NCBI RefSeq assembly: GCF_964213995.1
Contig: NC_135805.1
Coordinates: 122,264,001 to 122,328,000, forward strand
Reading direction: 5' to 3'
DNA: 64,000 nt
Origin: Mustelus asterias
Taxonomy: Eukaryota
Each line of letters begins with the position of its first letter. Positions within the stretch are counted from its first letter, which is position 1. A model generated the notes under the pieces. That model worked only from the letters and a program-made list of their open reading frames with translations. It was not told the DNA's origin and searched no databases. Made by a program: the position numbers and the translations under genes. Shown here one piece after another: positions 9,962-10,120 of the stretch.

Positions 9962-10120
9962 GGCACACTTCTGAGGAGAGCCACTCCACACCCAGGAGAA
10001 CTGAAGACCTTGAAAAAGACAGCAGAGAACTTGAGGAATGACATGAATGCTGCTAAAGGACTGGACTCCAACAAAAATGAGGTCAATAATGCCATTAAAA
10101 GAGTGACCACTTCTGTATAG
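9962..10120 (+). CDS. LRRC1: LRRC1 (Lano) canonical terminal coding exon
   Basis: Phase-0 acceptor atgtctag|GGC. Encodes [52 protein letters not shown], near-identical to the recalled human LRRC1 C-terminus. Too short to appear in the ORF track. Confidence 0.95.

Follow-up and report, generated by a model that had tools for sequence, protein, structure and literature searches.

We analysed a 64,000-nt stretch of DNA (the window) from the shark Mustelus asterias, and it carries the 3' part of the gene for LRRC1, or Lano (Table 1). With its N-terminal LRR array and LRRC1-type C-terminal region, the gene is an LRRC1 orthologue of the LAP family. P0085, the RefSeq LRRC1 isoform X1 of this species (896 amino acids), is identical to every mapped exon.

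Exon 9962, which is preceded by TAG, runs for 40 codons to ...NKNE, continues through a 12-residue tail, and reaches a stop codon at 10118-10120. Just before the tail, GAG (10079-10081) is followed by GT (10082-10083), 120 nt into the exon and in phase 0. Downstream, an AG at 50698-50699 precedes an open phase-0 exon that begins at 50700. The initial annotation had read these sites as a donor and a compatible acceptor, and all of its coordinates are correct. Translation confirms its statement that ignoring the GT at 10082 adds 12 residues that end in T-S-V.

In the sequence and the gene models, 9962-10120 combines exon and intron sequence and contains a 5' splice site, which is how a composite terminal exon is defined. 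We consider it likely that it is one: coding sequence of the short, TSV-ending Lano ends in this exon, the internal phase-0 GT would be the donor to conserved downstream exons, and the tail would probably derive from the beginning of an ancestral intron of SCRIB type. Two copies of AATAAA (at 11238 and 11611) lie at the end of the repeat-free 1.5 kb that follows the stop codon. The short form ends in T-S-V-stop, which matches S/T-x-V; we take this C-terminus of shark Lano to be a class I PDZ ligand motif. The C-terminal tail of Lano reportedly has a role in DLG binding.

Table 1. Features of the 3' part of LRRC1, in window coordinates (a slash marks the splice site)
Feature	Position	Strand	Remarks
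Preceding LRRC1 coding exon	893..1029	+	Ends ...DDEEK; phase-0 donor AAG/GTAATG; exact match to P0085
Shared part of composite exon	9962..10081	+	40 codons; RRATPHP motif; homologous to 46-codon SCRIB exon
Internal phase-0 splice donor GAG/GTCAAT	10079..10087	+	From sequence; used in gene models
Read-through tail	10082..10120	+	12 residues; ends in class I PDZ-binding motif (T-x-V)
Likely 3' UTR of short form	10121..11640	+	Repeat cover 0.00; end inferred
Long-form intron	10082..50699	+	40,618 nt; LINE and LTR-type insertions
Linker exon A	50700..50912	+	71 codons, no Met; conserved from shark to marsupial; in X2 and X18 contigs, spliced to 53291
Linker exon B	53291..53536	+	82 codons; begins EPVSKF; P0085 and RNA contigs
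First PDZ exon	57891..57980	+	90 nt; length and phase as in SCRIB PDZ1 exon
Four exons past the window	64080-64157, 68878-69159, 70751-70843, 73879-74031 (window-equivalent)		P0085

The composite-terminal-exon mechanism is itself already known. According to the accessible parts of PMC3708835, such exons typically have large introns and weak donors. As in the IgM heavy chain and CSTF3 intron 3, which are described there, Lano has an internal donor upstream of a polyadenylation signal, a large intron, a shorter read-through product, and conservation across vertebrates. Unlike in those two cases, the read-through form of Lano is the canonical and well-studied protein, and it gains a binding motif. 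Mammalian Lano/LRRC1, of 524 amino acids, is the same LRR protein with a near-identical tail (PMC6234904, PMC10333293, PMC7539533, each in the portions available). The available text of PMC6234904 and PMC6605793 describes it as PDZ-less, whereas the shark gene additionally encodes a PDZ-bearing end. LRRC1 also appears as an interaction partner of DLG in the portions available of PMC7539533 and PMC13290907.

The internal donor and the 40,618-nt intron

An in-frame GT is cheap by itself (there are three Val codons in exon 9962). We scored donors with a matrix built from 30 other donors of LRRC1 and SCRIB. The GT at 10082 has the top score among the 12 GT sites in 9962-10200, and it outscores 98.5% of 2,435 intronic GTs by the same LRRC1/SCRIB matrix. 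It had been described as a weak donor, and the two measures disagree on this: it ranks 14th of 31 by the matrix (best first), but it is the second weakest of the 31 by U1 duplex energy. It is also the only one of the 31 that combines a pyrimidine at +3 with the absence of G at +5. In other words, GAG/GTCAAT is an atypical donor, but it is not clearly weak.

The proposed transposon-bearing intron of about 40.6 kb is there, with LINE and LTR-type ORFs, and it is the largest of the 17 mapped introns of LRRC1. Introns of 32.3 kb and 31.3 kb occur elsewhere in the LRRC1 and SCRIB models, with the 32.3-kb intron lying upstream in LRRC1. Repeats cover a fraction of 0.39 of the long intron (a lower bound, computed from 464 kb of DNA), as compared to 0.25-0.38 for five other introns of LRRC1. 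The initial annotation had suggested that the length and transposon content of this intron favour the short form. Because its repeat cover is close to that of the gene's other introns, and because other introns of over 31 kb exist, we rejected transposon load as a special cause. Both the length and the repeat load of this intron are ordinary for LRRC1.

The long intron contains an LTR retrotransposon on the minus strand (35649-40077; G+C 0.54-0.57), with ORFs for gag, for protease, reverse transcriptase and RNase H, and for integrase. Many truncated fragments of LINE reverse transcriptase are scattered over the window (1129-2683, 18139-18813, 24692-27595, 31090-33827, 43086-43625, 47910-48659, 54570-55669, and 62271-63379). 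A degenerate AG/CA-rich tandem repeat at 54380-56050 is broken up by LINE fragments. At 46322-46775, both strands carry open frames (149 and 132 codons) that are probably derived from repeats and that have no match to the LRRC1 proteins that we tried.

Short and long ends in gene models and RNA

We compared the composite exon to the best 120 of 139 homologues, ranked by their likeness to the query. The tail is the C-terminus of 58 of these. Another 40 depart from the shared sequence right after codon 40, and the remaining 22 include the tail but extend past it, some via later splice sites (in teleost models) and some by apparent read-through of the stop codon (in contigs). All 80 of the tail-bearing proteins among these best 120 have a tail that starts with V-N, two codons that the donor also covers; the middle of the tail is variable. 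We see the short form in species from sharks to placentals, and the long form in models from sharks, bony fishes, reptiles, birds, marsupials, and platypus. Judging from these sequences, both ends are conserved across jawed vertebrates. No placental long form is among the named matches listed, including the best 120 of 139, or in another search that spanned 144-459 amino acids. This absence is weak evidence because of the restriction to the best 120 of 139 and to that size range, and because clusters at 50% might hide fused forms. Five LRRC1 models (P0083, P0092, P0114, P0115, and P0116) also contain the MLIP Pfam family and so run on into what is presumably the neighbouring MLIP gene, perhaps as read-through transcripts or through fusion during annotation; we did not find MLIP within 100 kb past the window.

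P0085 joins 10081 to 50700 and then continues with 53291-53536, 57891-57980, and the four exons past the window. To see how often other models do this, we collected 130 proteins that match the pattern for the start of exon A. This is a biased set, as the searches were aimed at stand-alone models and many of the proteins are isoforms or genomic fragments. Exon A follows codon 40 directly in 42 of the 130, the composite exon is left out in 4, and the 5' end is of some other kind in 84. The codon-40 joiners include NCBI models from sharks, three birds, and alligator. For sharks, NCBI models from five genera (counting Pristiophorus, which is listed in UniRef) join these exons to LRRC1. The junction of 10081 to 50700 is seen in gene models only, and these models are not independent of each other.

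We also examined RNA contigs that cover 50300-54350. In two of four runs (X2 and X18), 50912 is joined to 53291 across a GT..AG intron, so RNA is made from the downstream exons and spliced. Run X7 does not cover the downstream exons, and run X1 covers part of exon B only. One contig from X2 has 87 further letters on the 5' side of exon A, and its fit to the genome ends at 50699. This weighs slightly against the 10081-50700 junction in that transcript, because a partner that ended in ...GAG should also fit at 50698. None of the 18 Logan proteins among the homologues listed has the 10081-50700 junction. Six of the 18 have a splice from the preceding exon, and each of these runs into the tail, which is in keeping with a dominant short form.

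These data could instead reflect gene fission, with the downstream exons being expressed mainly as a separate transcript from an intronic promoter and the GT at 10082 being a little-used relic. In many amniote annotations, the exons are split off as a separate gene. With a marsupial downstream model as the query, we retrieved 34 stand-alone proteins in a range of species from gar to marsupials, and further searches found more. This 3' half of LRRC1 is annotated separately in many vertebrates (P0248-P0257, P0292-P0325, and P0336-P0346) as "scribble homolog", "erbin", "DLG1", "PDZ domain-containing protein 2", or "uncharacterized". Six turtle models share an N-terminus, and several birds have a nearby alternative 5' exon. 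Six Logan proteins (P0353-55 and P0387-89) start in the end of the intron, yet are spliced from exon A onward to the last exon, and the 87 letters on the 5' side of exon A in the X2 contig would also fit fission. On the other hand, late removal of the long intron would yield the same Logan contigs. No N-terminus is common to different clades: similarity among the stand-alone models begins abruptly at the acceptor, and their N-termini are unrelated between clades, with several being a translated pyrimidine tract. Conservation extends to the first codons of exon A, and the shark exon A lacks a Met. These features speak for an internal exon under selection, and exon A accordingly behaves as one that depends on a phase-0 donor further upstream. 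Given this, and the five shark genera whose models join these exons to LRRC1, we think that fission is unlikely to be the main explanation.

The long form might also arise by skipping, from the donor at 1029 directly to the acceptor at 50700, in which case 9962-10120 would be a skipped terminal exon and not a composite one. The phases are compatible, and four models do this (P0271, P0386, P0390, and P0393, from lizard, chicken, and sea turtle). But none of the four is from a shark, the codon-40 donor is used in 42 models as compared to these 4, and SCRIB keeps the homologous exon inside a long protein, so we consider skipping to be very unlikely. Instead, the internal GT at 10082 is likely a splice donor to the conserved downstream exons.

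Comparison with SCRIB

By searching the same genome, we found a SCRIB exon that has the same acceptor codon as exon 9962 of LRRC1 and that is 138 nt (46 codons) long up to its phase-0 donor. (In chimaera and teleosts, this exon seems to have about 43 codons, as inferred from read-through and spliced models.) If the tail of Lano arose from an intron, then SCRIB should have a phase-0 intron near codon 40, and in this genome there is one after codon 46. From there on, the two genes match exon by exon. Both have two linker exons and then PDZ1 exons of 90 and 78 nt, all in phase 0. They differ in that SCRIB has an extra 63-nt exon (GVSFDQ) and a KDTPHY motif, both of which are absent from long LRRC1; SCRIB has four PDZ domains instead of one; the matching intron of SCRIB is 1.2 kb instead of 40,618 nt; and the long form of LRRC1 has its own last exon with PRIILT, which 0 of 120 SCRIB proteins carry.

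The second half of the RRATPHP exon aligns poorly between LRRC1 and SCRIB, so we can match the introns by their order and phase, but not provably by codon. In the ungapped BLASTP alignment, the SCRIB donor lies 6 codons further on than the donor of LRRC1, within a stretch of low identity. Because that stretch is so diverged and varies in length among SCRIBs, a short deletion would explain the offset. The initial annotation had argued that the tail originated by read-through into an ancestral intron. The nearby phase-0 intron of SCRIB and the near-identical order of the downstream exons make an intron-derived tail likely, even though the codons cannot be aligned exactly, and it is the simplest reading of these comparisons. 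The tail has no visible likeness to anything in SCRIB. The least probable of the alternatives is that the tail is at least partly old exon sequence and that the codon-40 donor is newer or shifted, not ancestral: the SCRIB exon does have 43-46 codons instead of 40, and BLASTP pairs the first D-S of LRRC1's exon A with SCRIB codons 41-42, but a match of two residues is weak, and the tail does not resemble SCRIB codons 41-46.

We also noticed that the SCRIB donor, GTCAGT, resembles GTCAAT in LRRC1, but we discarded this likeness because read-through SCRIB models from other fishes imply other donors. A small contig has a second copy of the region around the RRATPHP exon of SCRIB, which is about 96% identical over 2.4 kb and might be a haplotype duplicate. 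No LRR exons of SCRIB were found in the 65 kb upstream of its RRATPHP exon.

PDZ domain and PxIxIT-like motif of the long form

The initial annotation had proposed that one splice choice switches the protein from a PDZ ligand to a PDZ-domain scaffold. There is indeed a PDZ-bearing alternative end, but long LRRC1 has just one PDZ stretch, instead of the four PDZ domains of Scribble, and it is intact only in fishes. This PDZ is most similar to PDZ1 of SCRIB (E = 9e-31, versus 3e-18 or weaker for PDZ2-4). We tested 10 long-form proteins for PF00595 from Pfam. It scored above the cut-off in shark (65.5 bits), barramundi, and gar and below the cut-off in two birds, and it was not found in two marsupial proteins, crocodile, frog, or the platypus model. 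In an alignment of long forms, the PDZ is lost exon-wise. Judging from these proteins, the label of PDZ scaffold fits fishes only, and the PDZ erodes in amniotes. We considered whether PDB entries 8BOJ, 8BUW, and 8BV7, which are labelled as LRRC1, represent the PDZ of vertebrate LRRC1, and rejected this: gar LRRC1 is more similar to PDZ1 of SCRIB (1e-30) than to these entries (2e-16). Their PDZ aligns best with PDZ2 of SCRIB; presumably, it is a Scribble domain from Trichoplax. A search of the ESM Atlas gave no usable match.

The most constant element of the long form is instead the start of its last exon, IPRIILT[RH]PSTSDED (in the shark, MPRIILTCPSSSDEE; its exon at window-equivalent 73879-74031 opens with MPRIILTCPS). 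A PxIxIT-like motif is present in all 34 matches to the downstream model, which is partly circular because the query carries the motif, and in 24 of 50 long or extended models. A cluster of S/T and acidic residues follows the motif in the last exon and is conserved from sharks to marsupials. PRIILT is the only match in the 384-amino-acid long tail to a published pattern for calcineurin-binding PxIxIT motifs, P[^PG][FILV][^PG][FILV][^PG] (bioRxiv 10.1101/632547, from the part of the preprint available). This loose pattern also matches 6,691 of 20,000 shuffled tails, or about a third of them, so the case for a calcineurin motif rests on its conservation. A stricter pattern, which was chosen after the motif had been seen, matches 60 of 100,000 shuffles. 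In the accessible portions of PMC6728138, a hydrophobic residue at position -1, a basic residue at position 2, and Ile at position 4 are reported to raise the affinity of PxIxIT motifs, and phosphorylation at position 9 raised it about 50-fold (in one scaffold only). The PRIILT site agrees with published motifs in its hydrophobic residue at -1 and in Arg (position 2), Ile (4), Thr (6), and Ser (9); it departs from the consensus in having Leu instead of Ile at position 5, and matches to the loose pattern are common. Overall, a predicted calcineurin-PxIxIT-like motif, IPRIILTxPS, persists from sharks to marsupials.

The long isoform is already predicted in RefSeq and Ensembl (XP_078069401.1 and others), and split models have the same exons, but these are predictions with inconsistent labels. 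It is apparently undescribed in print. We found no mention of LRRC1 isoforms in the portions available of PMC6400555, PMC10333293, PMC9729800, or bioRxiv 10.64898/2026.05.15.724572. More broadly, we found no paper on a PDZ-bearing isoform of LRRC1, although it might be mentioned in a 2020 review in Oncogene, in Santoni 2002, in Saito 2001, or in supplements.

We can propose how the two ends are made, building on the anatomy of the exon, the exon-by-exon match to SCRIB, the downstream splicing, and the conservation of both ends, which we demonstrate here. Most transcripts would ignore the donor at 10081, be translated for 12 more codons, and be cleaved after the AATAAA at 11238 or 11611, and the resulting LRR protein would be a PDZ ligand. 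In a minority, splicing from 10081 to 50700 would yield an LRR protein of 896 amino acids that has a single class I-type PDZ and, in its acidic tail, the PxIxIT-like motif. As to history, after SCRIB and LRRC1 were duplicated, the LRRC1 copy may have lost PDZ2-4 and gained an intronic stop codon and polyadenylation site before sharks and bony vertebrates diverged. The remaining PDZ of LRRC1 would then have eroded in tetrapods.

A bolder interpretation, which we offer tentatively and as a possibility only, is that non-placental jawed vertebrates have a second Lano, in which the conserved functional part is a putative calcineurin-docking PxIxIT motif, with a lone PDZ in fishes only. The choice between splicing and polyadenylation would then swap a DLG-binding tail for a dock for a calcium-regulated phosphatase, and a gene fission still visible in birds, turtles, and marsupials would have ended in the PDZ-less Lano.

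The comparison with SCRIB offers a concrete route by which a duplicate of SCRIB could become a PDZ-less PDZ ligand. It also suggests that the statement "Lano has no PDZ" holds for the canonical form in mammals, but not for fishes, which bears on experiments on the redundancy of LAP proteins in zebrafish, frog, and chick. Many entries that adjoin LRRC1 and are named "scribble homolog", "erbin", or "DLG1" are the 3' half of LRRC1. Finally, the conserved PxIxIT-like motif offers a directly testable connection between calcineurin and the scaffolds of basolateral polarity.
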